20,000 nucleotides of DNA from an uncultured virus (IMG/VR IMGVR_UViG_3300020577_012118) (IMGVR_UViG_3300020577_012118), one strand, 5' to 3'; counted from the first letter of the stretch, positions 4,191 through 18,558 are shown. The notes: a model not told the origin generated them from the letters alone. Translations and numbers: made by a program.

Positions 4191-4885
4191 CAGCACCCCC
4201 CGCAGTTCGAGCATCGTGCGTCCGCGTCGTGCCAGGAGTCGCACTCCTGGCACCTGATACGGGCCGTCTCCGGCCGCTTCTGCCTGGCGGCGAAGTCGGC
4301 CAGGTTGCCGACCGTCTGGTGGACGGTCCGCGTGCCGCCGTAGCGGCTGTAGCCGCGGGTGATTCGCATCTCGTGCGGCTGGTAGACGCGGACGAGCGTG
4401 CAGGCGGCGGTATCGACCCAGAACGGGGCCATGCACCTGGTGTTGGTGAGGCGGCACCGTTTGCCGTCGCGCGATTCGGCGACGACGATGTACGGCTGAT
4501 TCTTGTAGTTCACCTTCTTGAGCGCCCGCATGTTGCGGATCTCGTCCACCGTCTCGCTGCCGCGGACCAGTGACTCGGCGCGGGTGTTGCCGGCGTCGCC
4601 CAGGGCGTCGGCGACGATGCCCGCCGGCGTGTCGTTCGGTAGCCCCACGGAGGCGGCCGCCCGGACGCTCGCCGGCGTCGCCTCGACCAGGCCCAGCACG
4701 CCCTGGTTCAGCGTCGCGATCGCCTTCCGGGCCTTCTCCAGCTTGGCCTCGCCGAACCACCACAATTTCTTGTCGCGGTCGAAGTTGTCGCCCGTCAGGC
4801 CGATCAGATGTTTGGCCTCGTCCTTCTTGGAGAAGGGCAGGCCGTACAAATAGTAGCGGCGGCCTTCTTTCTTGATCTCGATCAT
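4190..4885 (-). CDS. Protein with DUF5710-like N-terminus and C-terminal zinc ribbon
   Basis: LPFSKKDEAK...FDRDKKLWW resembles DUF5710. CQEC...CSNCGGC at the C-terminus. GGGAGTGCG RBS. Confidence 0.65.
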   Translation of the reverse strand: MIEIKKEGRRYYLYGLPFSKKDEAKHLIGLTGDNFDRDKKLWWFGEAKLEKARKAIATLNQGVLGLVEATPASVRAAASVGLPNDTPAGIVADALGDAGNTRAESLVRGSETVDEIRNMRALKKVNYKNQPYIVVAESRDGKRCRLTNTRCMAPFWVDTAACTLVRVYQPHEMRITRGYSRYGGTRTVHQTVGNLADFAARQKRPETARIRCQECDSWHDADARCSNCGGC

Positions 4886-4900
4886 CGCACTCCCTTTCGG

Positions 4901-5059
4901 TTATCCGTTCATCGAACAGTCGCGATCCATGAAGTCGTCATAGTCGTCGCCCATCTTGTCGTAGATGTCGCGCCAGTCGTCCGCCGTGCCCTCGACCGGG
5001 TTGGCCTGGTCGAGGTCGCAGACGCACGGGTGGCAGAGGCAGTTCTCGCAAGGCTCCAT
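4901..5059 (-). CDS. Small Cys-rich acidic protein (52 aa)
   Basis: AAGGAGA RBS. MEPCENCLCHPCVCD... Fills the gap between neighbouring genes. Confidence 0.6.
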   Translation of the reverse strand: MEPCENCLCHPCVCDLDQANPVEGTADDWRDIYDKMGDDYDDFMDRDCSMNG

Positions 5060-5073
5060 GTCGTCTCCTTGGG

Positions 5074-5673
5074 TCAGTGGACGTTGCGGGGCTTGGTGTT
5101 GGGCACGATCGGCCCGGGCATGACGGGCGGCACGAAGCCCTTGTTCAGGGCGACGTTCGCCGTCGAGAAGAACAGGTGACAGGTCAGCCGGTTCTCCCGC
5201 GGGATGCCCTGGCGGTCGCAATCCTTGGCGTAGACGTCGATCTCCAGCCGGATCTTCGCGGCCGGGACGCCTCCGGAGAGCCACGCCAGGCACGTTTCCG
5301 CGGCACAGGCGCAGATCCCTCCTTCCGGCTTGACCGTTTTCATGAAGTGGACGATCAGTTCGGCGGCGACGTCTTCATCGTTGCCTTCGTCCGGCTTGAG
5401 CGCCTGGACCAGGACGTGCGTCCCCGTCTTGCCGTCCATGATCTCCGCCAGGTCGCGGAGGAACTTGGGGATCTCGTCGTTGCTCAGGGACGAGTAGGAC
5501 ACGGCAACGACCGGTGCCCCCTGGCCCATGCCCGACTTCGGGTCGGCGACCAGGCCGACGGCCATCACCGGGAGGGCGCTGCTCGCTTCGAGCGCCTTCC
5601 TCAGATTGAGGAACCGCTCCTCGAACGCTTCGGCGCGGACCTCTTCGTCTTCGATCACGAGATACTTGACCAT
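5074..5673 (-). CDS. Hypothetical protein (199 aa)
   Basis: Long ORF starting 3 bp after the upstream stop, with typical codon usage. Confidence 0.75.
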   Translation of the reverse strand: MVKYLVIEDEEVRAEAFEERFLNLRKALEASSALPVMAVGLVADPKSGMGQGAPVVAVSYSSLSNDEIPKFLRDLAEIMDGKTGTHVLVQALKPDEGNDEDVAAELIVHFMKTVKPEGGICACAAETCLAWLSGGVPAAKIRLEIDVYAKDCDRQGIPRENRLTCHLFFSTANVALNKGFVPPVMPGPIVPNTKPRNVH

Positions 5674-5676
5674 CGC

Positions 5677-6516
5677 TCACATCTCCCAATCCGAAACGCG
5701 GCCGGTCTCGTCGCCGGCCTCGACCGCCCGGAGAACGCTCTCCAGGTCGAACTTGTGGCGGAACAGGTGTCCCGTCCGCCTCTGCACACCAACGTACTCA
5801 CGCAGGAGGGCAGGATCCTCCCGCCCGGCAATCACCAGGGCCTCGAACGGGGCGAACACGCAGAACTTGCAGGACAGCCGCGGCATGCCCATGTCGTAGA
5901 CCCGGTGGTACGGGACGCCGCTCTGGTGGATGTCGCCCCACACCTGGCGGGCCGTCCATCCGTGGATCGGCAGCCAGACGTACACGCCGCGGTTCTTCGA
6001 GGAAGCCTTGTCGTCCCGGTAGAACGGCAGCATCTTGCTCCGCTTCGGCGATTCATCGGCACGCATCCCCATGACGTTGAGGAACGTGCAGTAGCAGCCG
6101 GCCTCCCGCTGCAACATGGTGATCACGCGGCGGATCGGGCCGCGCTTGAAGTCGCTCGTGCAGTAGCGGTTCACGCTGTCCGGCCACATGCCCCGCTTCT
6201 CGATCGACTCCAGGAGGGACGGCTCCGCCCCCTCCTTGTTCCGGGCCTTGGTCACGACGAACCTCAGCCCGTAGCGTTTCGCGTGGTCGGCCGCAAGCTC
6301 CTTCGCGCCCGGCCACTCCATCATCCCCAGGTCGGCGTGGACGGCGACCAGGCGGCGTCGGTCAACGCCGACCTGGTCGGCGACCTCGACGGCCCGCCGC
6401 ATCGCCGTCTGACTGTCCTTGCCTCCCGACGTGTTGAGCAGCCAGTAGTGCGACCCCCGCAGCATATGCTCCGGCGGCAGGACGTCCGGCTTGCCGGACA
6501 TTGGAAGCTCGATCAT
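5677..6516 (-). CDS. Phosphoadenosine phosphosulfate (PAPS) reductase-family PP-loop protein
   Basis: PP-loop SGGKDS, plus RYCTSDFKRGPI, GMRADESPKR, LPIHGWT and YDMGMPRLSCKFC. Confidence 0.9.
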   Translation of the reverse strand: MIELPMSGKPDVLPPEHMLRGSHYWLLNTSGGKDSQTAMRRAVEVADQVGVDRRRLVAVHADLGMMEWPGAKELAADHAKRYGLRFVVTKARNKEGAEPSLLESIEKRGMWPDSVNRYCTSDFKRGPIRRVITMLQREAGCYCTFLNVMGMRADESPKRSKMLPFYRDDKASSKNRGVYVWLPIHGWTARQVWGDIHQSGVPYHRVYDMGMPRLSCKFCVFAPFEALVIAGREDPALLREYVGVQRRTGHLFRHKFDLESVLRAVEAGDETGRVSDWEM

Positions 6517-6927: not shown

Positions 6928-7478
6928 CACTGCCTCCTCGTTAGCCCGGCGATAATCGGCAGACCGTACTTCGTCGGCCACGCCTTCTTTGCAAAGATGC
7001 CCTGGATCAGTTGCCCGCGGGCAACCCGCTTGTCGTCCTGCTCCGTCAGCCAGTCGGCGTAGGCCATCCACGTTGCCACGTCCTCCGGGTCGGCGTGGAT
7101 CCCCTCGATAAACACCGACTCGATCCGGTTCATCGGGAGCGGGACCTCGTGCAGGCCCAGCGACCAGAGGACCTTGCGGGCCAGGTTGCCGATCGGTTCC
7201 GACCGGAACTCGTATTCGGCGTTGCGGCAATAGCGCAGGAACTTGTAGGCCGGGCCGATCATGTCGGGCAGCTTTAAGCCGAACGTACAGAACCAGACGT
7301 GCCCCTGGCGTCCCGACCACCGCTGCACCCACTTGGCCCCGAACAGGGGGGCGAACTCGTGATTCGCCCCCGCCCATGCCGAGGCCGGCACGGGCTGACT
7401 TCCTTCGATTTGCGGCAGGCCGGGGAACAGGATCCTTGCGCACCCCGGGTTGATGTCCGCCCTGAACGTCAGCGTCAT
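6927..7478 (-). CDS. Protein with C-terminal TIGR02996-like domain (183 aa)
   Basis: FIEGIHADPEDVATWMAYADWLTEQDDKRVARGQLI matches the TIGR02996 pattern (FL.AI...P.DD..RLVYADWL.E.GD..RAEFI). ATGA overlap with the helicase stop. Confidence 0.75.
   Translation of the reverse strand: MTLTFRADINPGCARILFPGLPQIEGSQPVPASAWAGANHEFAPLFGAKWVQRWSGRQGHVWFCTFGLKLPDMIGPAYKFLRYCRNAEYEFRSEPIGNLARKVLWSLGLHEVPLPMNRIESVFIEGIHADPEDVATWMAYADWLTEQDDKRVARGQLIQGIFAKKAWPTKYGLPIIAGLTRRQ
7010..7025. repeat. 16-bp palindrome copy 1 (GTTGCCCGCGGGCAAC), intragenic
   Basis: Perfect palindrome matching the KTTGCCCRYGGGCAAM consensus. Confidence 0.65.
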
Positions 7479-10309
7479 AGCTCGATCCCCATGGCCGCCA
7501 GTTCGTCCGCCAGGTCGTCCAACTCCTCGCCCATGTCCTCGCCGTCGAGGCGGGCCTCCAAGGCTTCGAGCATGTCTTCGTACTCGTCGCGGTCCGGCTC
7601 CTTGGCCCGGCCCGTCGCCTTGCGCTTCACCTCCGCCCCGCTCGTCACCTTCTGCCACGCCCTCACGCCCCCGTCCTCCTTGATGTTGTCGGCCAGCGAC
7701 TTGGCCAGCGCCATCTCGATGTTACTATCGTCGCCTGCCATGGCCGCCAGGCCCTCGCTGGAGAAGTTCCCTTCCAGCGCCTGGGCCGCGGCCATCTTCT
7801 TGCCCATCAGGGCCATGGCCCTGGTCTGCATCGAGTCGGAGTAGCTCATGTACGCCACCTTGCACATCTTCTTCTGCCCGATCCGCCAGGCGCGTCGGGC
7901 CGCCTGGCGGAGCGTGAACAGCGAATACCCCGTCTGGTAGAAGAGGATCGAGCAGTAGTTGTGGCCGGTCGCCGGGTTGAAGAAATCCAACCCCGTCTGC
8001 ACCAGCTGCGGGTGCGAGATGATCACGTCATGGTCCTTTCCGTGGGCGTCGATCCACGCCTCACGATCCCGGGGGCTGACCTTGGCACGCATCACGGCGA
8101 CCCGCAGGCCGGCCGCCTTCATGAACCGTTCGAGGCGGGCGATACAGTCGCGCTTGTCGGTGTAGACCGCGTACACCCACGCCTGCCGCCCGGCGTCGCG
8201 CTCCTTGACGCACCACTCGACGGCCGCCTTCTCCTTCGGACGCATGACCGACGGGTCGAGGTTCTCAGGCACGGTCACCGTGACCCATCGCCTCTCGCCC
8301 ATCCCGCTGGCGCTGTCCTCGTCGTCCTCGTAGTAGCCGATCGCCTCCCAGTCGTAGGGGTAGTCCGGGTAGCACAGCAGGCAGTTGAGCATGCTTCCCA
8401 GCGCCTTGCGGCCGCCCTTCTTCATCATGTCCTTGATGGCTTGCGTGATGTCGCGATCGACCTTCTCGTAGGCCGCCCGCTGCTCGTCGTCCATCGGAAC
8501 CTCGATGGGCTCCTCGTCGAGGACGGGGAGGTTTTCTGCGACCTCCGCCAGGGACAAGAAGACGCACGACCCCATCAGGTGCCGGAACAGCGTCGGCATG
8601 ATTCCCGGGCGGGTGTACTTGGTGGTCGTCACCCCCTTCTTCGACCGCCCGTAGGTCATGCCCTTGCCCAGGTCGTCGGGCCGGTTGTCCTCCTTGAACT
8701 TGACCTTCTCCTCGATCCTGCCGAACTCCTCGTCGAAGCTCTGCTTGGCGTCCCACTCGTGCCCGGCTTCGATCAGGGACTGGGCGACGCCCATCCGGTA
8801 CAGCCCGCAGCGGACGTGCCAGGCGTAGCCGCCGACGAGCGTGCCGGTCAGGCCGATGCACTTGCGGACGGCGGCCGCCACGTCCCCCATGGCGTCGCCC
8901 TGGAGCGAGTCGTCCCCCTTGTACTCGTGGGCCTCGTCGAAGATGGCGATGTCCCAGAAGCCGCGGAGCCGCCGGTTGATGATCTCCGCCGGCGAGTACC
9001 GGGCCGGCTTGGGGATCGACTGCCAGAGTTGTTCGCCGCAGCGGTGACACTCCTTGCGGCTGGAACCCTTGGCGAAATACTTGTCCGGGATGGGGATCGT
9101 CTTGTTCGACTTCATCGTCAACACGCACCCGCAACCCGGACAGCGGTAGCGCCCGCCCTTCTCGCCCAGCGTCTTCTCCTTGACGTAGGCGTGCCGCCAC
9201 TCGCTGCCCAGCTTGAGCTTGTCCTTGCCGATGACGTAGTAGGTGTACCCCTCGCACGTCTCGTAGCACGACTTGCGGGTGCGCAGCCCCTCGTTGATGA
9301 TGGCCAACTCCTCGTTCGCCTGGTCGTCCTTGCCCTCCTTGCGCAGCTGGTACATCCGGTCGCCCCACTTGGGGAGGTCCCGCGAGATCGGCAGCAGTTC
9401 GCGGTACCGCCTGTTGTGCTCGTCCTTGCCGACGTTGAACTTCCGCCGGCGTTCGGCGTGCTGCCGGGCCAGGGCGAGGAGTTGGGCGTAGGAGTCGATC
9501 ACGTACACCGTCGCCCCGGGCACCGTCTTCTGCACCTCGCGGACCCACTTGTCCACGAGCGTCGTCGGGCAGACGACGAGCGCCCGGTAGCTGCCCTTGC
9601 AGACGTTGCGGAAGACGCGCGGCGAGTGGAGCACCCACTCCTGGGCCTTCTTGCCGGCCGCCTTCATGGCGACGCCGGCTGCCCCCGCCATGACGGCCGC
9701 ACGGTGCGGGCTGCCGGCCTCCATCCCCTTGTGGCTGACGACCCGCCCCTTGTACTCGCCGGCGGGCGTCACCTCCCAGCACGTGGCCTTGCGGTTCCAC
9801 ACGGGCGTCAGGCCCGGCACCCCGATCGTGTTGCCTCCGCCGTTGACGTAGCGCTTTCCGCGGTACGTGAACGGCTGGATTCGTATCGTGCCGTGTTTGT
9901 GGTCGCCGGGCGACGTGTGCGCCTTCTCGATCTCCGCGTAGAGCGCCTCGCCGACGTCGATGTACGGGCCGTAGGTCTTGACGTCCTTGGCCTCGCCGTC
10001 GGCCGGGAAGAACCGCCTGGCGTGATTCGTGTAGCGTTCCAGGCCGTAGCCGTGAGCCGCCCCGATCGCCATGATCGTCTTGCCGGTGCCCATCTCCGCC
10101 GTCGGCTGCACGGCCTTGGCCCGGCGGAGTTGCTTGATGGAGGCTTCGATCACGTGCTTCTGGGCGTCGAACGGCTCACGCATCAGGCCCAGATCTCGCA
10201 CCTTGTCCCGCCCGGGGACGTGCAGAGGGGCCAGCGTCTTACGGGCCTTGTCGGCGAGGATGTCGCCGTACTCCATCAGGAAATCGTCGAGCGTCTTGCA
10301 GTTGAACAT
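7475..10309 (-). CDS. SF2 (SNF2-like/DEAH) helicase with zinc ribbon
   Basis: Motif I AEMGTGKT, Ia VVCPTTLVDKW, II DEAHE, III LTGT, V VQTGLD, VI QAARRAWRIGQ. Also CPGCG...CHRCGE. Confidence 0.9.
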   Translation of the reverse strand: MFNCKTLDDFLMEYGDILADKARKTLAPLHVPGRDKVRDLGLMREPFDAQKHVIEASIKQLRRAKAVQPTAEMGTGKTIMAIGAAHGYGLERYTNHARRFFPADGEAKDVKTYGPYIDVGEALYAEIEKAHTSPGDHKHGTIRIQPFTYRGKRYVNGGGNTIGVPGLTPVWNRKATCWEVTPAGEYKGRVVSHKGMEAGSPHRAAVMAGAAGVAMKAAGKKAQEWVLHSPRVFRNVCKGSYRALVVCPTTLVDKWVREVQKTVPGATVYVIDSYAQLLALARQHAERRRKFNVGKDEHNRRYRELLPISRDLPKWGDRMYQLRKEGKDDQANEELAIINEGLRTRKSCYETCEGYTYYVIGKDKLKLGSEWRHAYVKEKTLGEKGGRYRCPGCGCVLTMKSNKTIPIPDKYFAKGSSRKECHRCGEQLWQSIPKPARYSPAEIINRRLRGFWDIAIFDEAHEYKGDDSLQGDAMGDVAAAVRKCIGLTGTLVGGYAWHVRCGLYRMGVAQSLIEAGHEWDAKQSFDEEFGRIEEKVKFKEDNRPDDLGKGMTYGRSKKGVTTTKYTRPGIMPTLFRHLMGSCVFLSLAEVAENLPVLDEEPIEVPMDDEQRAAYEKVDRDITQAIKDMMKKGGRKALGSMLNCLLCYPDYPYDWEAIGYYEDDEDSASGMGERRWVTVTVPENLDPSVMRPKEKAAVEWCVKERDAGRQAWVYAVYTDKRDCIARLERFMKAAGLRVAVMRAKVSPRDREAWIDAHGKDHDVIISHPQLVQTGLDFFNPATGHNYCSILFYQTGYSLFTLRQAARRAWRIGQKKMCKVAYMSYSDSMQTRAMALMGKKMAAAQALEGNFSSEGLAAMAGDDSNIEMALAKSLADNIKEDGGVRAWQKVTSGAEVKRKATGRAKEPDRDEYEDMLEALEARLDGEDMGEELDDLADELAAMGIEL

Positions 10310-10329: not shown

Positions 10330-10355
10330 GGCCGTTTGCCCATGGGCAAACGGCC
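10330..10355. repeat. Palindrome copy 2 (core TTTGCCCATGGGCAAA at 10335-10350, extends to 26 bp)
   Basis: GGCCGTTTGCCCATGGGCAAACGGCC, intergenic, just upstream of the helicase RBS. Confidence 0.9.
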
Positions 10356-10376: not shown

Positions 10377-10979
10377 TCACTTCTTGGCCTTGGCCTCCAA
10401 CTCCTTCCTCCGCCGCTCCGAACGCAGATGCGAGACGATCTCCTTCCGCCGTGCGGGCGTCGTCGGGGCGAGCAGGAGGTCCGGCGTCAGGCCGTCGAGC
10501 AGGGCGCACAGCGAGTCAAGCATCGACGTGAAGGAAACCATGCCCGGCTCGTACTTGGCGATCGGCGGCAGGAGTCCCTTGGCCCGCTTCCTCTGCTCAC
10601 GCTTCGACGGATCGACGTCGGCACAGTGGTCGAGCATGAACTCGAACACCTCTTCCGGGACGTTCGAGCATTCGGGTCCGGACCCTTCGGCGATCGACAG
10701 TTCGCCGAACCAGTAGAAGTTCGACCGGCCCTCGTTGAACCAGTAGTAGGGGCACAGCTTGCCGATCATCAGGTACTCCAGGCGGGCCAGCTGTTCGGCC
10801 CCGGGGTAGCCGATTTGGTGGTCGTCCATGTGGTCACGCAGGGCGAGCATCGCCAGGGCCTTCGACAGGTCGGCGTCCACGCCCGCCTCCGCGGCCGCCT
10901 TAGCGGCTTCGGTGAACTCCTCCGCCGCGTCCTTGAGCATCTGCTGCTGCACCCGATCGAGTTGTTCGAAGAACATCAC
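10377..10979 (-). CDS. Hypothetical protein (~200 aa)
   Basis: AAGGGGGAG RBS, helical composition. The start could be 10976. Confidence 0.75.
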   Translation of the reverse strand: MMFFEQLDRVQQQMLKDAAEEFTEAAKAAAEAGVDADLSKALAMLALRDHMDDHQIGYPGAEQLARLEYLMIGKLCPYYWFNEGRSNFYWFGELSIAEGSGPECSNVPEEVFEFMLDHCADVDPSKREQRKRAKGLLPPIAKYEPGMVSFTSMLDSLCALLDGLTPDLLLAPTTPARRKEIVSHLRSERRRKELEAKAKK

Positions 10980-10991
10980 ATCTCCCCCTTG

Positions 10992-11615
10992 TCAGTCCGC
11001 GACGCGGACAGTCCCCTTCTTCACCAGGTCCATAGCCACTTCGTCGAGATACTTGTCGTCGGCCAGCACCAGGGCGGCGTTGATCGGGCCGCGGTTGCCG
11101 GCGTCCACGATCCTCTGGTCCTTCTCCATCCGGGCGACCACTTCGGCCAGCCAACGCTCGTCGAGCGGCGTCGTGGTGTGAAGCTGCAAGTAACGCCAGA
11201 CGGCCTGGTGGCAGCGGTTGACCAGAAGCGTCTTGCGCTTGCTGATCGCCACCAGGTGGAAGTGCCCGTCGCCGACCGCCTTGGTTCTGACGGCGTAACC
11301 TTCGGAGTCGGCACCCGACGTCTCCGTCCGGCCCTGCTTGCCGGCCTTCTCGAACGGGCAGTAGTGGAACTGGATGCCCCGCCCGACCTGGAGAGCCGCC
11401 CGGAAGGCCCGGACCTCCGTGCTGGTGCCGATCGCCGACATCACGAGCAGCGAGCGGGTGTAGCTCGTGTCGATGGCCACGCGATCGACACGCAGGCTGA
11501 ACCCGCACGCCTCCGACTCGATCGTCAGCTTGCCGATGACCCCGGGGTGGCCGGGGCGGGGAACCCGGGAGACTTTGCCGCCAGGTACGCCCGGTAAATC
11601 CTTGGTCTCGACCAT
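10992..11615 (-). CDS. Hypothetical protein, possibly the partner gene of DUF6094-MTase/helicase loci
   Basis: Globular-looking ORF (MSAIGTSTEVRAFRAAL...TTTPLDERW). Start is uncertain and overlaps the recombinase 3' end. Confidence 0.65.
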   Translation of the reverse strand: MVETKDLPGVPGGKVSRVPRPGHPGVIGKLTIESEACGFSLRVDRVAIDTSYTRSLLVMSAIGTSTEVRAFRAALQVGRGIQFHYCPFEKAGKQGRTETSGADSEGYAVRTKAVGDGHFHLVAISKRKTLLVNRCHQAVWRYLQLHTTTPLDERWLAEVVARMEKDQRIVDAGNRGPINAALVLADDKYLDEVAMDLVKKGTVRVAD

Positions 11616-12301
11616 TTCTTGCCCTTTCCCGTGAGGATGCCGGCCGCCATGAAGGCGAGCCAAATCTGATCGAACGTCTTGCCTTCTTCCTCGTGCAGAC
11701 GCACCACCTGGTGCATCGCATCGACCTCGCGGTCGTCCCAGACGAGGCGCTTCTGCCCCTTCGGGCCGTCGTACCTCTGCCCCAGGCCCGGGGCACCGGC
11801 CGCACGGCCCTGGGCCTTTCGGAACTGCATGACCTCCCTGGTCCGCTCCGCGATCATCTCCCGCTCCGCCTGGGCGAACTGGGCCATGAGCCGGATATAC
11901 AGCCGGCCCGGGGCGGTGCCGGTGGTGATCTTGTCGCGGACCAGGTGGACCGTCACGCCCCGCTCGATCCAGTCCTCCAGCGTCGCCACGGCGTCACGGA
12001 AGGACCGGAAGCCGCGGGCGATGTCGAGCATGACGACGTGATCGCCGGTCCGGACCCGGGCCGCCAGTTCGCCGCCGGCGGGCCTCCTGGCGAACGGCAC
12101 CCTGCCCGACACGCCCGACCGATCTCCGGTCGTCTTGTCGATGAAGATGCCGCCGTCCGAAGTGCCCATGGGCAAATGGTCGGCCATGTACTTCGAGACC
12201 ATCGACTTCTGGCACTCGATCGAATGCCCGTCGTCCGCCTGGCCGGCCGTCGAGACCCGGACGTATCCGTAGCCGACGGGCTTCCTTGTCGTGACGCTCA
12301 C
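11525..12301 (-). CDS. Serine recombinase (resolvase/invertase family)
   Basis: Catalytic YVRVST, SGVSG...RRP, DIARGFRS, AQAEREMIAERTREVM, and a C-terminal DNA-binding region (KKWSRPRIYR). Confidence 0.9.
   Translation of the reverse strand: MSVTTRKPVGYGYVRVSTAGQADDGHSIECQKSMVSKYMADHLPMGTSDGGIFIDKTTGDRSGVSGRVPFARRPAGGELAARVRTGDHVVMLDIARGFRSFRDAVATLEDWIERGVTVHLVRDKITTGTAPGRLYIRLMAQFAQAEREMIAERTREVMQFRKAQGRAAGAPGLGQRYDGPKGQKRLVWDDREVDAMHQVVRLHEEEGKTFDQIWLAFMAAGILTGKGKKWSRPRIYRAYLAAKSPGFPAPATPGSSAS
12161..12176. repeat. Palindrome copy 3 (AGTGCCCATGGGCAAA), inside the recombinase gene
   Basis: 14/16 match to TTTGCCCATGGGCAAA. Confidence 0.75.
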
Positions 12302-12675
12302 GTTTCCCCCCTATCGTCGTCCGAGGCGACCATGACGGCGTCGTCCCACGACAGCCCCTGACGCTCGCCCTCGCCGCCGACGGGGATGGGTCCGTCGATC
12401 GCCATGTGGGGCATCAGCGACACTCTGCTCACGACCCAGGAGTCGCCGCTCTCGACGATCTCCTCCATCCACGCCGTCCCGCAACCTCCGTCACAGCGGG
12501 TGATCGAGTACATCAGGACGACCCGGTCACCATTCGCCGTCCGGACCTCGCCCCAGTCCAGCTGCTCCCAGGCCCACTCGCTTGCCCCGCAGCCCGGACA
12601 CCCGGAGCCGCGTTCGGCGACGTACCGGTTACAGGCCAAGGCCCACTGGACCTTGTTCTTCTTCAACGCTCCCAC
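12298..12675 (-). CDS. Zinc-ribbon array member 12
   Basis: KKNKVQW...CPGCGA...CDGGC. AAGGAG RBS. Confidence 0.75.
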   Translation of the reverse strand: MGALKKNKVQWALACNRYVAERGSGCPGCGASEWAWEQLDWGEVRTANGDRVVLMYSITRCDGGCGTAWMEEIVESGDSWVVSRVSLMPHMAIDGPIPVGGEGERQGLSWDDAVMVASDDDRGET

Positions 12676-12678
12676 CGT

Positions 12679-12927
12679 TCACTCCTTATGCACGGCCTCA
12701 TCGACACCCTCGACCATCACCGTTTGCCCATGGGCAGTTTCCACCGTTTCCTTCCAGAGCGCCCTGCACCGTCTGCACCGGTAGATCACTTTCCAGTGGG
12801 CGTCGCCGTCCGGGATGCCTCCCGGCCGTTCGACCTCAGTCCACATCTCCGGGAAGGCCCCGCACCCCGGGCATGCAATGGCCTTCTCGTTCAGGTAGGC
12901 GACTACCTGAACCTTGTTGAGCCTCAT
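12679..12927 (-). CDS. Zinc-ribbon array member 11
   Basis: MRLNKVQVV...CPGCGA...CRRC. GGGGAG RBS. Confidence 0.8.
   Translation of the reverse strand: MRLNKVQVVAYLNEKAIACPGCGAFPEMWTEVERPGGIPDGDAHWKVIYRCRRCRALWKETVETAHGQTVMVEGVDEAVHKE
12723..12738. repeat. Palindrome copy 4 (TTTGCCCATGGGCAGT), intragenic
   Basis: 14/16 match. Confidence 0.75.
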
Positions 12928-12960
12928 CGGCTCCCCCTTTCTGTCTCCAATGGTGAGGCA

Positions 12961-12991
12961 CCATTATCCCATAATGGCGTCTAAATGTCAA
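12961..12991 (-). promoter_or_regulatory. Sigma70-like promoter with palindromic -10 region
   Basis: TTGACA (12991-12986)-N17-GATAAT (12968-12963) with TGn extension. The -10 sits inside CCATTAT-CCC-ATAATGG. Confidence 0.75.
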
Positions 12992-13277
12992 ACGACGGGC
13001 TATATGGCGGGATGCAAGACGTGTCCGGCCTGATCTCGACCGCCGCGATCGTGTCTTGCATCCCGCCCTCGACGAAGCCGGTCGTCAAGAACCAGGACTT
13101 GCGGCAGTTGTCGCAGACGTGGCGGACGACCATCCTCGTCTCGTTCCCCATGCGGTAGGCGACCGGGGCACGCCCCGAGAACTGGCAGACGCGGGCCTGT
13201 CCGTCCGGCCCGCAGTAGGGGCACAGCGGCAGCGTGCCGATCCCCTCGACGACGCGGCAAGCGTACACCTTGTTCAC
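12981..13277 (-). CDS. Zinc-ribbon array member 10
   Basis: MNKVYACRV...CPYCG...CDNC. GTGA overlap. Confidence 0.8.
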   Translation of the reverse strand: MNKVYACRVVEGIGTLPLCPYCGPDGQARVCQFSGRAPVAYRMGNETRMVVRHVCDNCRKSWFLTTGFVEGGMQDTIAAVEIRPDTSCIPPYSPSFDI

Positions 13278-13528
13278 GCCGTGATCTCCACCAGTTCATT
13301 GTCCCGCGTTCGGTAGACCATCGCGAATTGCCGCTCGCACGACAGGCACCGCCGCGTGCAAACGTAGACCGACTCTCGCGTCTTGTGGCAGATCGCGTAC
13401 CGCGAGTCGTACCTACCGGAGTAGGTGCCCGAATGCTCGCCGCACAGTGGGCATGCGTCCATGTACTCCGGCAAGAGATGCCTCACTCTCCGGCTGTTCA
13501 TGATGCGCACCACCACCACCTTGATCAT
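13274..13528 (-). CDS. Zinc-ribbon array member 9
   Basis: MIKVVVVRI...MDACPLCG...CLSC. Strong RBS and ATGA overlap. Confidence 0.8.
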   Translation of the reverse strand: MIKVVVVRIMNSRRVRHLLPEYMDACPLCGEHSGTYSGRYDSRYAICHKTRESVYVCTRRCLSCERQFAMVYRTRDNELVEITA

Positions 13529-13791
13529 CCCTCCCTCCTTCTGTATGGCACGACGTGCGTCACGTGCGTCGTCCGCTTGACGTCGAAGTCATAACGGACG
13601 CCGACGCGGCACCTGCACGAGTACCCTACCCATTCCCCGTCGCACGTCCCTTTGTCGTTGATCATGGCCTCCCGTCCGGACGGCGTTTCGTCCGGTTCAT
13701 ACGTCCACTTGTTGCTCCTTCCGCACACGGGGCACGGAACGGTTACGAACGGCGGGCCATGTACGACCCGCACCAGGTTCGCCTTGTTCAT
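13525..13791 (-). CDS. Zinc-ribbon array member 8
   Basis: MNKANLVRV...CPVCG...CRC. ATGA overlap. Confidence 0.75.
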   Translation of the reverse strand: MNKANLVRVVHGPPFVTVPCPVCGRSNKWTYEPDETPSGREAMINDKGTCDGEWVGYSCRCRVGVRYDFDVKRTTHVTHVVPYRRREG

Positions 13792-14039
13792 GCTGTCTTG
13801 CCCTCCGGGTAGCGCTCGTCGGCGACATCGATGAACCCAGTCACCTCGCCCAGTTCGTGATCCCAGCCGACAACGAACCGGCAGCCGTTCATTCGGCACC
13901 AGTACACGCGCTGTCCGGACGGATGGCCATGCGGCGTCGCGTGCATCCGGAACGACTCGACCGTTCCGCACACCGGGCAGCGCCGGTATGGGTTGTCGTC
14001 CTTGCGTCCGAAACTCGCCCTCGTCACCTTGTTGCCCAT
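13788..14039 (-). CDS. Zinc-ribbon array member 7
   Basis: MGNKVTRAS...CPVCG...CRMNGC. AGGAGG RBS. Confidence 0.8.
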   Translation of the reverse strand: MGNKVTRASFGRKDDNPYRRCPVCGTVESFRMHATPHGHPSGQRVYWCRMNGCRFVVGWDHELGEVTGFIDVADERYPEGKTA

Positions 14040-14053
14040 GATTCCTCCTGCCG

Positions 14054-14317
14054 TCACCTTGTGGTGATCGACGTGATGACGGTCTGCTCGTACCGCCTGT
14101 TGTCGAAAAAACCCGTCGCGTAGTGCAGAACGTAGAAGCCGTTGCAGATGCGGCATCGCGTACTGACGGCGTCCTCTCGAATTTCCGGCGTCCGCCTTTC
14201 GATGCGAGCCTTGATCCGCTTCTGGTAGCCGTGCTGCCCGCAGTGCGGGCAGACGTCCATGGCGAGCGATCCTCGACGCCGGCTGATCATCCGGCACACG
14301 ATCACCTTGTTCAGCAT
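14054..14317 (-). CDS. Zinc-ribbon array member 6
   Basis: MLNKVIVCRM...MDVCPHCG...CRIC. Confidence 0.8.
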   Translation of the reverse strand: MLNKVIVCRMISRRRGSLAMDVCPHCGQHGYQKRIKARIERRTPEIREDAVSTRCRICNGFYVLHYATGFFDNRRYEQTVITSITTR

Positions 14318-14329
14318 GAGGCCCTCTGA

Positions 14330-14590
14330 CTAACTGTTCAAAGACACGTCGATGACGTCCGTGAGGTAGTAGCCGTCCCACGGGTCGAACATCTCCCGGT
14401 CGGGGCTGTAGCGGAGGACGTACCACGCATCGCACCCGCCGCAATGTGCAATGTGGCCATACTCGTTTTGCAGACGCCTTCCCATTTGCTGGTTGCACCT
14501 GATGCCGCAGCACGGGCACATCATCGTCTGGCCCAGCGTTCCGCCCAGGATGAGGACGACGGCCGGCTTCTTGAGCGTGTATCGCGTCAC
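14330..14590 (-). CDS. Zinc-ribbon array member 5
   Basis: GTG start, TRYTLKKPAVVLI...CPCCG...CGGC. GGAGGA RBS and GTGA overlap. Confidence 0.75.
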   Translation of the reverse strand: MTRYTLKKPAVVLILGGTLGQTMMCPCCGIRCNQQMGRRLQNEYGHIAHCGGCDAWYVLRYSPDREMFDPWDGYYLTDVIDVSLNS

Positions 14591-14895
14591 GCCGCGTCCT
14601 CCTGGCCGTCGATGATCTTGACGTTGGTGATAATGTTGTCGCCGCGGACCCATCCGACAAGCAGCGTCATGCCGCACCGGTCGCACCGGATTTTTGCCGC
14701 GGCGAGGACGACGCTGTCGCCTGCGTCCCAGGCGATGCACACCTGGCGTCCTTCGGTGCCTTGATGATCGACGCGACTCATGTCGCCACGCCGACAGGAC
14801 GCCGCTACGCACGCCACCCTGGGAAGGCCGTAGCGGTTGATCGGCTGGTTCATCGCGTTGACCAGTCCGACGATCAGAACCTTGCTGGCGATCAC
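14587..14895 (-). CDS. Zinc-ribbon array member 4
   Basis: GTG start, IASKVLIV...CVAASC...CDRCG. GGAGGA RBS and GTGA overlap. Confidence 0.7.
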   Translation of the reverse strand: MIASKVLIVGLVNAMNQPINRYGLPRVACVAASCRRGDMSRVDHQGTEGRQVCIAWDAGDSVVLAAAKIRCDRCGMTLLVGWVRGDNIITNVKIIDGQEDAA

Positions 14896-15164
14896 GGCTT
14901 CGCGTCCTCCGCCTCGATCCATTCGGTGCGCACCGTACCGGCCGTCCGGATGGTGATCTTGCAGCTGGCGCAAATCCACTCCGTGGCCATGTAGCTGTAA
15001 CTGCTGCCCCCCGCCGGCAGGGTCACCATCCTGTTCTTCAAGTTGTGAAGCCTGTCCTGCCGCATCAGGGGTATCATCGGCCGCACCATCGCCATCTTGG
15101 CGCACCGCGGACAGGCGAGCGGGTCACCCCTGCCGTCGGCCATGTGGTGGGCATAGCGCACCAT
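14892..15164 (-). CDS. Zinc-ribbon array member 3
   Basis: MVRY...CPRC...CASC. TGATG coupling. Start uncertain. Confidence 0.65.
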   Translation of the reverse strand: MVRYAHHMADGRGDPLACPRCAKMAMVRPMIPLMRQDRLHNLKNRMVTLPAGGSSYSYMATEWICASCKITIRTAGTVRTEWIEAEDAKP

Positions 15165-15424
15165 CAGGGGCTTGTGAAGCGGAAGCTTACGGCGACGTGG
15201 AGCGTTAGCGTTGGCGTGCCCGTCATCTCCACCTGGAACGGGCACCATCGGCATCCCATTAGCCATCCGTTGAACCCCTGGTAGACCGTGGATTCCATGT
15301 TGTTCCTGATGCACGAATATCCGGGAGTCGTCGTCTTTCGGCACGCCGGGCACTTGAGTTCCGGGAATGCCGCCGAGTCACTGTCGAAGTCCGCCACGTA
15401 GCGGCACAGAAGGATCTTGTTCAC
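15164..15424 (-). CDS. Zinc-ribbon array member 2
   Basis: MNKILLCRY...CPAC...CRWC. GAGGT RBS. Confidence 0.75.
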   Translation of the reverse strand: MNKILLCRYVADFDSDSAAFPELKCPACRKTTTPGYSCIRNNMESTVYQGFNGWLMGCRWCPFQVEMTGTPTLTLHVAVSFRFTSP

Positions 15425-15704
15425 GGCTCGACCTCTTGTTGGGGAAATGCAGTCCTGCCACGCGGTACATCCCGGGTATGCCTCTGGGCGACCACTCCAT
15501 CCGACGAGAGAAGATCCTTTCGCAGCAGTCCGTCACCATCGTGATCCACAACTCATCGGGCTTGTACTCTTCGTTGGACGGGTAGCCCTCGAAATCGTTG
15601 ACGATCCGGTACGTCATGGCGGCGTTGCCGCACATCGGGCACGTCTCCATCGCGTCATCCGTCACCGCCTGGATGCAGAAGCGGACCGCCCAGACCTTGT
15701 TCAT
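15378..15704 (-). CDS. Zinc-ribbon array member 1
   Basis: MNKVWAVRF...METCPMCG...DCC. GGAGGTG RBS. Confidence 0.8.
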   Translation of the reverse strand: MNKVWAVRFCIQAVTDDAMETCPMCGNAAMTYRIVNDFEGYPSNEEYKPDELWITMVTDCCERIFSRRMEWSPRGIPGMYRVAGLHFPNKRSSREQDPSVPLRGGLRQ

Positions 15705-15721
15705 CGGCACCTCCACGGAAA

Positions 15722-15751
15722 GGCCACGGTTGCCCGTGGGCAACCGTGGCC
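15722..15751. repeat. Palindrome copy 5 (core GTTGCCCGTGGGCAAC at 15729-15744, 14-bp arms)
   Basis: GGCCACGGTTGCCC-GT-GGGCAACCGTGGCC, directly upstream of the first array gene. Confidence 0.85.
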
Positions 15752-15773
15752 ATGTTACGACATCGCGTTCGGG

Positions 15774-16721
15774 TCAGATGTTGGCGTCCTGGCTGGCCGG
15801 GTTCATCGGCACCGGATCACCCTGGTCCGGGCGGCCGCCGCCCATGATCCGGCGATTCCTTTTCGCGGCCAGATGCCGCTCGAGGTCGGCGTAATCCGCT
15901 GCCGGAATCTTCCTGGCGTACACCACCTGGTCCGGAGCCGGTCCCGGCTCGTTCGCCACCGGCATTCCGCACCCCTCGCCCGGACTCTCCTTGCTGACCG
16001 GCCTGAACGGCTTGTTGACCGCCATCGGCTGCCCTGCCGGCTGGGCACCGTCGCGCTTCTTGCTATCGTCGCCTCGTGCCGCGTGGATCGCCTCGATCGC
16101 CTCGTCCACCTTGCGGCGTGCCTCGTCGCCCAGCCTGGCGTAGCCGTCGCCGGCGATGATCGTCGTCAGCGCCACGATCATCGCCGACCGCTCGCGGTAC
16201 TCCTTCGACATCGTGTCGATCTCGCCCATGACGGCGCGGCTCGCCTTGTCCCGGGCCGCCTGGGCCTCTTCCATGATCTTCTTGCGGACGTTCTCCGCCT
16301 GGCGCAGCTGTTCGGCCTTGCTCTCCAGCTGACAGCGGAGCATTTCGCACGTAGCCGACTTGGCGTCGTGCGACTTGGCGAGGACGTCGTGCAGGACGCT
16401 CATCGCCAGGAACGATTTTCTCTGACGGTCGGCGTCACGCTTCGCCTCCTCGAGGTCCTTCATGATCTCCGTGATGGCGACGCGCAGGTTCGCCGGGTCG
16501 TTGTCCGGGTCGGCCGGGACGTCCGCCCGCTTGGTCAGGGCGTTGATCCGTTCCCGCTGCCAGGAGTTGCAGCCGGCCAGCTGCCGGTTGTTCTCCTCCA
16601 GGTCTCCGATCTTGGTGGTCATCTGGCGGATCACCGTCTCCAGTTCCGCGATGCGCCCGGCGGCGTCCTGGCTGGCGCGGAACTTGGCCGCCTCCGCCAT
16701 CATCGTGTTGAGGCTATCCAT
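15774..16721 (-). CDS. Coiled-coil hypothetical protein (315 aa)
   Basis: E/K/R/A-rich helical heptad character with a disordered Pro-rich tail. AAGGGG RBS. Confidence 0.75.
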   Translation of the reverse strand: MDSLNTMMAEAAKFRASQDAAGRIAELETVIRQMTTKIGDLEENNRQLAGCNSWQRERINALTKRADVPADPDNDPANLRVAITEIMKDLEEAKRDADRQRKSFLAMSVLHDVLAKSHDAKSATCEMLRCQLESKAEQLRQAENVRKKIMEEAQAARDKASRAVMGEIDTMSKEYRERSAMIVALTTIIAGDGYARLGDEARRKVDEAIEAIHAARGDDSKKRDGAQPAGQPMAVNKPFRPVSKESPGEGCGMPVANEPGPAPDQVVYARKIPAADYADLERHLAAKRNRRIMGGGRPDQGDPVPMNPASQDANI

Positions 16722-16781: not shown

Positions 16782-16801
16782 GATTTGCCCGTGGGCAAAT
16801 C
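16782..16801. repeat. Palindrome copy 6 (core TTTGCCCGTGGGCAAA at 16784-16799)
   Basis: GATTTGCCC-GT-GGGCAAATC, abutting the methyltransferase stop codon. Confidence 0.85.
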
Positions 16802-17816
16802 ACACCAGGTCGTGAATCTTACCCTGCGACGTCATCACCCGCACCTTGAGCTTGATGCGTTCGGAGACCGTCATCGTGATGACCGTCTCCTCGTTCTCCC
16901 CGGTGCCCTTGACCTCGCTGTCCTCGCCGGCGACGTACTTCTCCTTGAAGGGAGTCGCCTTGATGAGGACCGGGTCCTCGCCGGGCTTGCGGATCGTGGT
17001 GTTGAGCATCCCGCCCGCCAGGACCAGGGCCATCTGGCCGCGGCTCAGTTCCAGGGGCGGGCTGGGCGCGGGGATCGGCGGGGGCACGTCGAACAGCTTG
17101 TCGAGCGGGCTCGCGGCCAGGGCCTCGCCCGCCTCGATGTCGGTCAGCCCCCACTTCATGAACCGCGACGGCCCGGGGGCCGTCGGCACGATGTACTTCA
17201 TGTGCCTCGTGGTCGGGCTGTTGACGTCATAGATCCAGTTGTACGGCTCGCCCCGGACCGAGGTCGGCCGCTTACGGGCCAGGACGACGACCTCCTTGAA
17301 GGCCCGCGGCTCCGGGAACGGGACGGTCCTGATGTCGGTGTACCAGGACAGGATGTGCCCCCGGATCTCGCTCCGCGTCAGGACCGGTTCGGGCAGCACG
17401 AACATCAGGACCCCGCCCGGCACCAGGAGGGGCGTCGCGTGCTCCAGGAACCGCGTCTCGACCCGGCTGCCCCCGCCGACCTCGCTGTCGAACGGCGGGT
17501 TGAGCCAGATGGCCCCGAAACCCTGGACGCCGATCCGGCACAGCGTGAAGTCGGCCGGAGCGCCGACGTTGCGGGCCTTGGGCAGCGTCTGGCAGGCCGT
17601 GGCGTACCGCGTCGGCTCCAGTTCCGTGATGTAGACCCGCTCCTCCGGGAAGCCCAGCAGGCCCGCCAGGTGGGCGATCGCCTCGCCCTTGCCGCAGCAC
17701 GGGTCGAGGATGGTCGAGCGGTTGCCCATGGGCAAATCGACGTGTTTGGCGATCGTTTCGACCGCGTCCAGCGGGGCCGGGTAAAAGCCCCCTTTCATCG
17801 CCGCTTCCAATCGCAT
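16800..17816 (-). CDS. SAM-dependent amino (N6-A/N4-C type) DNA methyltransferase, DUF6094-like
   Basis: GGFYPAP, ILDPCCGKGEA (motif I), WLNPPF (motif IV), LLVPGGVLMFV, and C-terminal PPLELSRGQMALVLAGG. Confidence 0.85.
   Translation of the reverse strand: MRLEAAMKGGFYPAPLDAVETIAKHVDLPMGNRSTILDPCCGKGEAIAHLAGLLGFPEERVYITELEPTRYATACQTLPKARNVGAPADFTLCRIGVQGFGAIWLNPPFDSEVGGGSRVETRFLEHATPLLVPGGVLMFVLPEPVLTRSEIRGHILSWYTDIRTVPFPEPRAFKEVVVLARKRPTSVRGEPYNWIYDVNSPTTRHMKYIVPTAPGPSRFMKWGLTDIEAGEALAASPLDKLFDVPPPIPAPSPPLELSRGQMALVLAGGMLNTTIRKPGEDPVLIKATPFKEKYVAGEDSEVKGTGENEETVITMTVSERIKLKVRVMTSQGKIHDLV
17721..17736. repeat. Palindrome copy 7 (GTTGCCCATGGGCAAA), inside the methyltransferase gene
   Basis: 15/16 match. 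Confidence 0.8.
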
Positions 17817-17941: not shown

Positions 17942-18499
17942 TCACGCCGGCGTCGCCGGCTCCGTCCTCGCCACGCTCTTTCGGCCCGGTGCCCTGGTCC
18001 GGGCCGCCCGGGCGGCCGCCGGCCGGGACGTCTTCGCCGCGTCCTTGACCTGGAAGTAAGCCTTTCCGCTCTGGGCGTACAGGCGGCCCGACCAGATCGC
18101 CCCGCCCTTGGCCACGAACGACGGGTTGGCGACCGTCTTGATGTGGCTGCCCTTGTCCATGAGCTTGTACCGCATCTTGCCGCTGTCGTTCTCAGCGGCC
18201 CATCCGGTCCCGTCCCAGATGATGTTCATCGACACCCCGCCCTTCTCCATCGCCAGCGTGTCGCGCTTGTCGATGCAGCCGTGGCAGATGCGGTCGCCGT
18301 TCGGTGCCGTGCCGTACAGCTGGCGGCCGTCGGTGGCGTTGCTCTGACGCTTCTTCTCGCACACCGAGCACACGAAGTTCGTGTTCAGCAGCCCCCCGTC
18401 GGTGGCGGCCGCCGGCGGAGTCGCCTGCGCGGTTGTCGCTACCGTCGTCTTCTTCGCCCGCGGCTTCGTCGGCCGCGCGGCCTTTGCGTGGAACGCCAT
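17942..18499 (-). CDS. Hypothetical protein with CSVC/CHGC zinc motif and basic low-complexity ends (185 aa)
   Basis: AAGGGG RBS before MAFHAK. K/R/A/T-rich termini. Confidence 0.7.
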   Translation of the reverse strand: MAFHAKAARPTKPRAKKTTVATTAQATPPAAATDGGLLNTNFVCSVCEKKRQSNATDGRQLYGTAPNGDRICHGCIDKRDTLAMEKGGVSMNIIWDGTGWAAENDSGKMRYKLMDKGSHIKTVANPSFVAKGGAIWSGRLYAQSGKAYFQVKDAAKTSRPAAARAARTRAPGRKSVARTEPATPA

Positions 18500-18558
18500 G
18501 GTTGGACCCCTTGGTTTGGATGGGCAGACGCGCCCATCGTATCGAGACACCGATTGTC

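Follow-up and report, generated by a model that had tools for sequence, protein, structure and literature searches.

Expansions of zinc-ribbon proteins in phage genomes are already known in print: Bacillus phage G is reported to carry about 35 copies of a zinc-ribbon protein of unknown function, for which roles as transcription factors or structural DNA-binding proteins have been proposed (2021, Viruses 13:63, PMC7824862). The internal proteins of T-even phages (IPI, IPII, IPIII, and the polymorphic IP loci) are described as a diverse anti-restriction set whose members have only an N-terminal capsid-targeting sequence in common (Rao & Black 2010, PMC3012670), and Enki, a predicted zinc-ribbon protein of 52 amino acids (aa) from a Vibrio phage, is described as an inhibitor of the AbiH and retron defenses (bioRxiv 10.1101/2024.06.14.598830). 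The locus presented here lies in a 20,000-nucleotide stretch of DNA, called the window below, from the uncultured virus IMGVR_UViG_3300020577_012118 of IMG/VR. The minus strand of the window carries, at positions 12298 to 15704, 12 consecutive genes, termed z1 to z12 in transcription order, that encode proteins of 82 to 125 aa each. The locus is best explained as a lineage-specific tandem expansion of an undescribed four-cysteine zinc-ribbon family in an accessory region for DNA modification and counter-defense.

The z array resembles the phage G expansion, as far as the published description of the latter goes, in that a phage genome encodes many copies of a small zinc-ribbon protein. It differs in the host phylum, in belonging to an element of about 69 kb rather than to a jumbo phage, and in that the copies stand in one tight, coupled array with a common N-terminal motif and a coupled recombinase gene. 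The array profile found nothing at an E value of ≤0.1 in the 497,513-bp phage G record, in a weak test in which a single candidate was scored. With the T-even internal proteins, the z proteins have in common that diverse small phage proteins carry a short conserved N-terminal peptide (8 of the 12 z proteins by a strict definition and 10 by a loose one). In contrast, the T4 proteins are not zinc ribbons; the bodies of the z proteins are homologous to each other, and the z genes stand beside DNA modification genes and a recombinase gene, with no capsid link visible. The likeness to Enki is one of description (very small size and a predicted zinc ribbon), and Enki, which acts against unrelated host defenses, is presented as a single gene rather than an array. 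In the limited library of literature searched, which covered tandem zinc-ribbon paralogs of phages and anti-defense, DUF6094, and the zinc ribbons of jumbo phages, the z family, the tight array form, an array-wide N-terminal motif that differs between lineages, and the coupling to a small serine recombinase were not found.

The 12 z genes are real, co-oriented, and translationally coupled, and the array ends in the gene of a small serine recombinase. An earlier note, made from the sequence, had listed 12 tightly packed minus-strand open reading frames (ORFs) of 82 to 125 aa, several of them coupled; its coordinates and sizes are right, and the overlaps, the ribosome-binding-site-like sequences, and the codon composition agree with it. 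Most z starts have a GGAGG-like (Shine-Dalgarno-like) site upstream. Start and stop codons overlap by 4 nucleotides (nt) (ATGA or GTGA) at z3/z4, z4/z5, z7/z8, z8/z9, z9/z10, and z12/recombinase, z1/z2 and z2/z3 overlap by the lengths given in Table 1, and the other junctions are gaps of 3 to 53 nt. The overlap of the z12 stop codon with the GTG start codon of the recombinase gene (GTGA) indicates that the recombinase probably belongs to the array operon. In the chosen frames, the G+C fraction is 0.79 to 0.91 at third codon positions (GC3) versus 0.44 to 0.52 at second codon positions (GC2), which fits coding DNA at about 64% G+C. The G+C content of the array region is 62 to 68%, and the 5 kb around it are overlapped by 48 ORFs of 50 aa or more. 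Among the public runs carrying the array stretch, no RNA run is listed.

The plan of the z proteins consists of an N-terminal M-x(0-6)-NK[VIA] motif, a CPxC(G) knuckle, a variable loop of 21 to 43 aa, a second cysteine pair, and a beta tail. The first knuckle is found at residues 18 to 29 in all 12 proteins, as CPxC in 11 and as CxxxxC in z4. The second cysteine pair follows 21 to 43 residues on in all 12, being CxxC in seven and CC, CxC, Cx3C (twice), and Cx4C in the other five; an aromatic residue usually stands three residues past it, and the tail after it comprises 22 to 60 residues. In the alignment of z1 to z12, columns are on average 23% identical, BLAST gives weak pairwise scores, and the only invariant or nearly invariant columns are K3 of the N-terminal motif, C-P-x-C, and the second cysteine pair (the four cysteine columns correspond to C22, C25, C58, and C61 of z1). 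Leave-one-out hidden Markov models (HMMs) were compared with 500 shuffles per protein in which every cysteine was kept fixed. No shuffle matched the real score for 8 of the 12 proteins (z1 and z6 to z12); the real score was reached by a few shuffles of z2 and by rising numbers of shuffles of z3, z4, and z5 (Table 1). The strict motif NK[VIA] is present near the N terminus of 8 of the 12 array proteins versus none of 597 start sites taken as controls from the rest of the window, and a looser motif is present in 10 of the 12 versus 4 of the 597. The HMM of the z array, run over the window, detected no further member outside the array.

A second array was found through the DUF6094 methyltransferase encoded upstream of z1. 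This protein has 369 homologs at an E value of ≤1e-10, many of which lie on contigs of 57 to 84 kb, and the named relatives come from Pirellulales, Gemmataceae, and other metagenome-assembled genomes (MAGs) of Planctomycetota. The closest methyltransferases are P0046 (67% identity), P0047 (51%, on a 68-kb contig), and P0049 (49%, on a 69.5-kb contig). Related loci were collected with an alignment of 30 methyltransferase homologs (80 from metagenomes, 80 from genomes, and 36 from IMG/VR), and 197 loci were scanned for runs of at least three small ORFs with two knuckles. Besides a trio in locus L059, an array was present in one locus, the 9,670-bp contig L002. The L059 trio, three small cysteine-rich two-knuckle ORFs at 229 to 1059 upstream of a distant DUF6094 homolog (31% identity), has neither of the two N-terminal motifs and may be an unrelated small zinc-ribbon cluster. 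The L002 methyltransferase is 50% identical to that of the window and is followed by eight small genes (a to h, 62 to 97 aa, 4378 to 6271), a serine recombinase gene, and a homolog of the window gene at 10992 to 11663. The recombinase gene stands directly after the array, its start is overlapped by the last array gene, and its product is 51% identical to the recombinase of the window. ATGA overlaps occur at five junctions of the L002 array, together with GGAGG-like sites. All eight proteins start with M-[RK]-x-R-K-D or a near variant, with R4, K5, and D6 invariant, and have a CPxC knuckle followed by a CxxCxxx[WF] knuckle.

The two arrays match each other in a profile-profile comparison with a probability of 79% and an E value of 1.6e-5 over 42 core columns. 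In the joint alignment, NKV of the z proteins and RKD of the L002 proteins occupy the same columns, and the start of z11 (MRLNKV) resembles the L002 consensus (MRLRKD). In addition, z11 and L002-g match each other best in both directions (34.7 bits, above any pair within an array), as do z5 and L002-b (26.6 bits). These pairs suggest, in a reading to be held loosely, that some duplications are older than the divergence of the two phages, with the N-terminal motif staying uniform within each. An HMM built from only the eight L002 proteins served as an independent profile and was run on every stop-to-stop ORF of 40 aa or more in the window (263 ORFs). Its first nine ranks are z11, z12, z5, z10, z9, z6, z8, z1, and z3 (E values of 9.5e-7 to 0.017), and the best ORF outside the array has an E value of 0.1; z4, z7, and z2 are not distinguished from the background of the 263 window ORFs by this profile. 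The homology of 11 of the 12 z proteins is supported by at least one of these sequence tests, that of z3 marginally. z4 (SKV, CxxxxC, CxxC) fits the family by its architecture and position only.

Other relatives of the methyltransferase lack the array. The recombinase gene follows the methyltransferase gene directly in three loci (L090, L025, and L021) and at a distance of 0.4 to 0.5 kb in two (L015 and L129), and in another (L162) the methyltransferase gene is directly followed by the homolog of the gene at 10992 to 11663 and a helicase gene. This identifies the array as an accessory insert on which neither the methyltransferase nor the recombinase depends. The retention of methyltransferase, helicase, and recombinase in relatives without the array also argues against a role of the z proteins as obligatory subunits. 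None of the searches or models assigned a function to a z protein, and the specific roles that the earlier note had offered (anti-defense inhibitors, specificity subunits of the methyltransferase or helicase, or RNA polymerase modulators) are thus conjectural.

AlphaFold2 models of z6 and z11, built from the paralog alignment, have mean predicted local distance difference test (pLDDT) values of 69.8 and 68.1 and predicted template modeling (pTM) scores of 0.54 and 0.55, respectively. Strands are predicted at residues 31 to 42, 46 to 55, 61 to 71, and 74 to 85 of z6 and at residues 29 to 33, 43 to 51, 57 to 65, and 68 to 77 of z11. Both models agree, with moderate confidence, on the order of knuckle 1, two strands, knuckle 2, and two strands, and the N-terminal segment is of low confidence and inconsistent between them, z6 having a short strand there and z11 a helix. 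In these models, the z proteins are predicted to possess the knuckles and the flanking antiparallel strands of a classical four-cysteine zinc ribbon. Among sequences of the PDB, the core profile matches the C-terminal zinc ribbons of the TFS/RPB9/RPA12 group, below family thresholds (1qyp_A, E value of 0.0029; 4c2m_I [RPA12], E value of 0.0093). Based on these weak matches, the z class is read as probably a classical zinc ribbon plus two extra strands. Like the TFS/RPB9/RPA12 ribbons, it has two knuckles (CPxCG ... CxxC plus an aromatic residue) that bracket beta hairpins; unlike them, it has a longer, hypervariable loop, two extra C-terminal strands, the N-terminal motif, and no transcription factor context.

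No described fold stands out in comparisons with the two models. In the PDB and BFVD, Foldseek found nothing at an E value of ≤0.001 for either model, and seven WRKY entries appeared at the noise level (E values of 1.0 to 2.2). The best Z scores of an exhaustive VIA-align search, 5.7 and 5.4 for the two models, are in the background range. WRKY domains, SIFV ORF14, AcrID1 (Z scores of 5.0 and 4.2), and an anti-Cas9 nuclease (Z scores of 5.0 and 4.3) recur in both VIA-align lists, not above unrelated rows; SIFV ORF14 and AcrID1 are archaeal virus proteins, and these matches are treated as leads only. The rows of the WRKY-GCM1 type (8k31_B, Z score of 5.2, root mean square deviation of 4.2 over 74 aligned residues; 6j4e_B, Z score of 3.9) are within the range that is common for unrelated folds. 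The net charge of the z paralogs extends from −9 (z12, isoelectric point [pI] of 4.4) to +10 (z6, pI of 10.2), and this wide span argues against one common type of ligand such as DNA.

None of the 12 z proteins reaches the gathering score of a Pfam family (best E value of 0.007), and there is no significant match in PHROGs v4, in which the best match (E value of 0.0037) is a family without known function. In NCBIfam, the best match, TFS_arch with z11 (E value of 0.021), is far below the cutoff, and the eight L002 array proteins also have no match. A HMMER profile search of 1.84 billion cluster representatives returned 44 proteins at an E value of ≤0.001. Twelve of them are single-stretch matches with the exact lengths of z1 to z12, six being confirmed as the window's own proteins and six being equated with them by length only. 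The other 32 are longer (131 to 1629 aa) and have 2 to 13 matched stretches, mostly at profile positions 13 to 78; the ten inspected contain generic, repeated CPxCG...CxxC modules without the N-terminal motif. A word-indexed search of 5.8 billion clusters gave six matches, all of them the window's own proteins, a blastn search of the array against 50,697 phage records gave none, and a search of the ESM Atlas with z11 returned unnamed clusters only (scores of 0.92 to 0.93). In 401 sampled Planctomycetota genomes, with at most 13 candidates scored per genome and arrays as such not sought, the array profile had weak matches in nine, mostly to the zinc-ribbon core and in open frames of 44 to 756 aa; one of the genomes has six identically scoring copies in 426-aa frames. 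There was no match of the array profile in the five genomes behind related loci. Thus, the z family appears to be either very narrowly distributed or diverging too fast to trace. The earlier note had proposed that a single small scaffold, not recognized as part of any described system, was serially duplicated and diversified, and both parts of this proposal hold: the duplication is backed by the alignment, the cysteine-fixed shuffles, and the L002 profile, with similarity beyond generic CxxC pairs in 11 of the 12 proteins (z4 excepted), and the family is undescribed, having no significant match in Pfam, PHROGs, or NCBIfam, no fold match above noise, and no relative in large protein libraries.

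How such genes change is visible in orthologs of three L002 genes, which a protein search with the L002 alignment found on other short contigs. One pair (P0167 and P0174) is nearly identical over the first ~20 residues and ~30% identical over the remainder. A trio (P0166, P0170, and P0175) is ~62% identical, with conservation of the N-terminal 33 residues and the second knuckle, indels of 18 aa and 7 aa in the loop between the knuckles, and a variable tail. The pair P0171 and P0173, 70% identical, has a like pattern of a conserved N terminus and a variable rest. By these sequence comparisons, the N-terminal ~20 to 35 residues of L002-type orthologs are nearly invariant, and the loop and tail appear to change fast, with indels. 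The z array stretch itself is present in runs of three studies, one of which is possibly the source. A 3,771-nt contig from a different study is identical to the window over 12162 to 15932, and the differences listed for that study's two runs are all outside the array, most of them at 10533 to 11443. Hypervariation like that of diversity-generating retroelements was rejected on the basis of this identity in the second study's contigs. A shufflon or cassette arrangement was rejected as well, there being no repeated sites between the genes, most of which overlap. In the second study's contigs, dense base differences were also observed at 10533 to 10850, in the gene at 10377 to 10979, along with two more at 11442 to 11443 in the gene at 10992 to 11663. 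Since that run shows no difference in the array, it is the gene at 10377 to 10979, rather than the array, that varies in this phage population.

The genes that neighbor the array are all on the array strand (Table 1). They include a DpdA-type transglycosylase gene near a PAPS-reductase-like gene, which suggests that the phage probably carries a 7-deazaguanine-type DNA modification. The DUF6094 methyltransferase and the SNF2-type helicase were observed to be conserved neighbors across virus contigs of ~45 to 100 kb and Planctomycetota MAG contigs, and in that contig family a small serine recombinase gene often stands directly after the methyltransferase gene. Such DNA modification and counter-restriction blocks occur in phages and conjugative elements. 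In the recombinase, Pfam recognizes only the catalytic domain (residues 11 to 166 of 258), and the C-terminal ~90 residues have no match even at an E value of ≤1. Its PHROG match covers positions 91 to 306 of a 651-position integrase profile, so that the protein resembles a reduced form of the larger serine integrases. The coiled-coil-like protein encoded between the methyltransferase gene and the array has no counterpart in L002. Single-protein scans of IMG/VR for close relatives returned none for this protein, none for the recombinase, and one 16-residue match for the methyltransferase.

The element, of about 69 kb, is probably a tailed phage of Planctomycetota. Methyltransferase relatives are found on IMG/VR virus contigs of 45 to 100 kb, among them a virus genome of 69,470 bp that has direct terminal repeats and is rated 100% complete; the contig of the window has 69,178 bp. 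The HK97 capsid family had no match in two related virus records, and Terminase_6N had a subthreshold match in one related virus record, in a 600-aa frame (E value of 4.7e-4, 15 bits). In the window, no structural, protease, or scaffold gene is among the family matches.

A palindrome, TTGCCC(A/G)TGGGCAA, recurs at nine sites of the window with at most one mismatch (7011, 10336, 12162, 12724, 15730, 16785, 17722, 19437, and 19633). This corresponds to 18 strand matches versus 0.28 expected, a count that none of 200 shuffles reached. Several of the sites lie 20 to 65 nt upstream of gene starts, namely, those of the SNF2-type helicase, z1, the coiled-coil-like protein, and the gene starting at 19416. 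Two sites extend to longer perfect palindromes, one of 26 bp (10330 to 10355) and one of 30 bp (15722 to 15751), the latter of which, just ahead of the array, may serve as an operator or form an RNA hairpin. The 14-bp palindrome is absent from L002 and present in just two of 210 loci; from its recurrence and placement, it is likely a phage operator or RNA hairpin.

Table 1. Features of the z array and its surroundings in the window. The coordinates of the z genes include the stop codon, and their ranges without it are given in the third column. Shuffles, cysteine-fixed shuffles (of 500) that reached the real score; L002-HMM, E value under the profile of the eight L002 array proteins.
Feature	Coordinates	Without stop codon	Strand	Length	Remarks
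DpdA-type transglycosylase	3128-3955		-		Pfam DpdA, E value of 3.4e-74; 46% identical to mycobacteriophage DpdA
PAPS-reductase-like protein	5677-6516		-		
SNF2-type helicase	7475-10309		-		
Two genes without known function	10377-10979, 10992-11663		-		
Small serine recombinase	11525-12301		-	258 aa	Pfam Resolvase, E value of 9.2e-26; PHROG integrase/DNA invertase
z12	12298-12675	12301-12675	-	125 aa	KKNKVQW; CPGCG..CDGGC; acidic C-terminal tail, pI of 4.4; last gene of the array; shuffles 0/500; L002-HMM 2.3e-5
z11	12679-12927	12682-12927	-	82 aa	MRLNKVQVV; CPGCG..CRRC; reciprocal best match of L002 gene g; structure model 2; shuffles 0/500; L002-HMM 9.5e-7
Sigma-70-like promoter match TTGACA-17-(TG)GATAAT, 11/12	12963-12991		-		Spans the z10 stop codon and the 53-nt z10/z11 gap; consensus match only
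z10	12981-13277	12984-13277	-	98 aa	GTG start; (M)NKVYACR; CPYCG..CDNC; shuffles 0/500; L002-HMM 1.2e-4
z9	13274-13528	13277-13528	-	84 aa	MIKVVVVR; CPLCG..CLSC; shuffles 0/500; L002-HMM 2.7e-4
z8	13525-13791	13528-13791	-	88 aa	MNKANLVR; CPVCG..CRC; shuffles 0/500; L002-HMM 2.8e-3
z7	13788-14039	13791-14039	-	83 aa	MGNKVTR; CPVCG..CRMNGC; shuffles 0/500
z6	14054-14317	14057-14317	-	87 aa	MLNKVIVCR; CPHCG..CRIC; structure model 1; shuffles 0/500; L002-HMM 3.4e-4
z5	14330-14590	14333-14590	-	86 aa	LKKPAVV; CPCCG..CGGC; reciprocal best match of L002 gene b; shuffles 232/500; L002-HMM 9e-5
z4	14587-14895	14590-14895	-	102 aa	MIASKVLIV; CVAASC..CDRC; weakest member, architecture only; shuffles 88/500; L002-HMM 0.41
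z3	14892-15164	14895-15164	-	90 aa	Without NKV motif; CPRC..CASC; 1-nt overlap with z2; shuffles 22/500; L002-HMM 0.017
z2	15164-15424	15167-15424	-	86 aa	GTG start; (M)NKILLCR..CPAC..CRWC; 47-nt overlap with z1; shuffles 2/500
z1	15378-15704	15381-15704	-	108 aa	MNKVWAVR..CPMCG..CC; first gene of the array; shuffles 0/500; L002-HMM 3.7e-3
30-bp perfect palindrome with the recurrent 14-bp motif, TTGCCCGTGGGCAA	15722-15751		.	30 bp	26 nt upstream of the z1 start
Coiled-coil-like protein	15774-16721		-	315 aa	Weak helical/coiled-coil matches (OVT1, E value of 8e-4); between the methyltransferase gene and the array
DUF6094 methyltransferase	16800-17816		-		
LPD23-domain protein	17942-18550		-		

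As to function, we tentatively favor, with somewhat less than even confidence, the reading that the z array is a repertoire of host-directed or anti-defense binders that are built on one zinc scaffold and share one docking peptide. The zinc site would be a minimal stable scaffold that tolerates almost any sequence in the loop and tail. Each paralog would bind its own target early in infection, most likely a host defense, another host protein, or a nucleic acid, and the conserved N-terminal peptide, lineage specific and uniform within a lineage, would tie the paralogs to one common phage-specific partner or destination. This host-directed or anti-defense reading is favored because of the accessory status of the array, the pattern of divergence, the varied charge, the neighborhood, and the precedents of Enki and the T-even internal proteins. 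The data are consistent with the N-terminal motif being a common docking element, as the earlier note suggested; L002 has a different array-wide motif (RKD for NKV), although some members look orthologous across the two arrays. Several points weigh against the binder reading. Binding, targets, and the timing of expression are all postulated, and rapid evolution is deduced from the divergence of the two arrays known rather than from ratios of nonsynonymous to synonymous substitution rates. No z protein matches a known anti-defense family; a match to the Lar-like phrog_599 is confined to z11 (E value of 0.012, 16.7 bits), the other 11 having none at an E value of ≤0.1. The array is identical on all contigs compared, with no sign of ongoing hypervariation in the population. 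In addition, the tight coupling to a recombinase gene in both arrays is left unexplained, and the NK codons at the 5′ ends may owe something to selection for translation starts that are rich in A+T and unstructured, the genome having 64% G+C.

The main alternative, possible if doubtful, is that the z proteins are nucleic acid binders, acting as transcription factors, as structural DNA binders, or as interchangeable target-selecting partners of the recombinase or the DUF6094 methyltransferase, with each paralog directing the enzyme to a different DNA site. The gene order speaks for such a function: in both arrays, the last gene overlaps the start of the recombinase gene, the array lies between the recombinase and methyltransferase genes, and the recombinase is a protein in which Pfam recognizes only the catalytic domain. 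The core profile is weakly nearest to the TFS/RPB9/RPA12 zinc ribbons (including TFS_arch), both structure models repeatedly touch WRKY DNA-binding domains at the noise level, the phage G expansion was proposed to consist of transcription factors or structural DNA binders, and the nine 14-bp palindromes of the window are candidate DNA sites of the element. However, the six loci without an array indicate that the enzymes work without z proteins, and twelve specific regulators would be a large number for a genome of 69 kb. No z protein matches a DNA-binding family of Pfam even at an E value of ≤1, and Zn_ribbon_recom is likewise absent from the matches of all 12 at this cutoff, at which the HMMER filters lose many matches above ~0.1. 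Moreover, several members are strongly acidic in a family whose charge varies as described above, and there are no repeated DNA sites between the z genes that could act as recombination sites. A complex prediction for the recombinase with z11, run with no controls, scored 0.00 and speaks neither for nor against binding.

As a special case of the binder reading, the z proteins might be ejection (internal) proteins packaged in the virion, with the N-terminal peptide as a capsid- or scaffold-targeting signal and the bodies acting at once on host defenses; this is unlikely. Diverse bodies with one short N-terminal motif mirror the T-even internal proteins. The motif is uniform within and different between the lineages (NKV versus RKD) despite the orthology suggested by z11/L002-g and z5/L002-b, which would be expected of coevolution with one partner, e.g., a scaffold, and the packaged variant would best explain a lineage-specific motif. 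The separate methyltransferase and SNF2-type helicase genes flanking the array also recall the fused methyltransferase-helicase DarB of phage P1, a packaged anti-restriction protein. On the other hand, the window has no recognizable gene for a structural protein, protease, or scaffold, the residues after the N-terminal peptide show no conserved cleavage motif, the z genes lie in a DNA metabolism block, coupled to a recombinase gene, and not in a head module, and the orthology across the arrays rests on 27 to 35 bits. Similarly improbable is an adaptor library, in which the N-terminal peptide would dock all paralogs on one phage machine (the recombinase, the methyltransferase and helicase, or the capsid interior), coevolving as a block, and the loop would pick the DNA site or host protein, for a twelve-way retargeting of one enzyme or delivery route. 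Finally, long spurious ORFs are common at 62 to 68% G+C, 48 ORFs of at least 50 aa are present here, and the pairwise similarities are weak, but that the z ORFs are chance open frames or decaying remnants without function is hardly credible given their GC3, ribosome-binding-site-like sequences, and precise start/stop overlaps, the family signal beyond the cysteines, the nine z ORFs picked by the L002 profile, and the conservation of L002 array orthologs on further contigs.

New anti-defense and host takeover activities arise mainly from small phage proteins that evolve fast, most of which are invisible to homology searches; to our knowledge, the biology of Planctomycetota phages is almost unknown. 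The z array represents a compact design in which a zinc scaffold, a conserved N-terminal motif, and a hypervariable loop are combined in 12 copies that take up ~5% of a 69-kb genome, and a related phage repeats this design, with a different motif, in a second array. If the motif is a docking or delivery signal, it would provide a sequence rule for finding effector repertoires in uncultured Planctomycetota phages, and the z proteins would also offer a minimal natural scaffold for engineered binders. If the z proteins instead retarget the recombinase or the methyltransferase, they would represent a new way to diversify the specificity of DNA enzymes.

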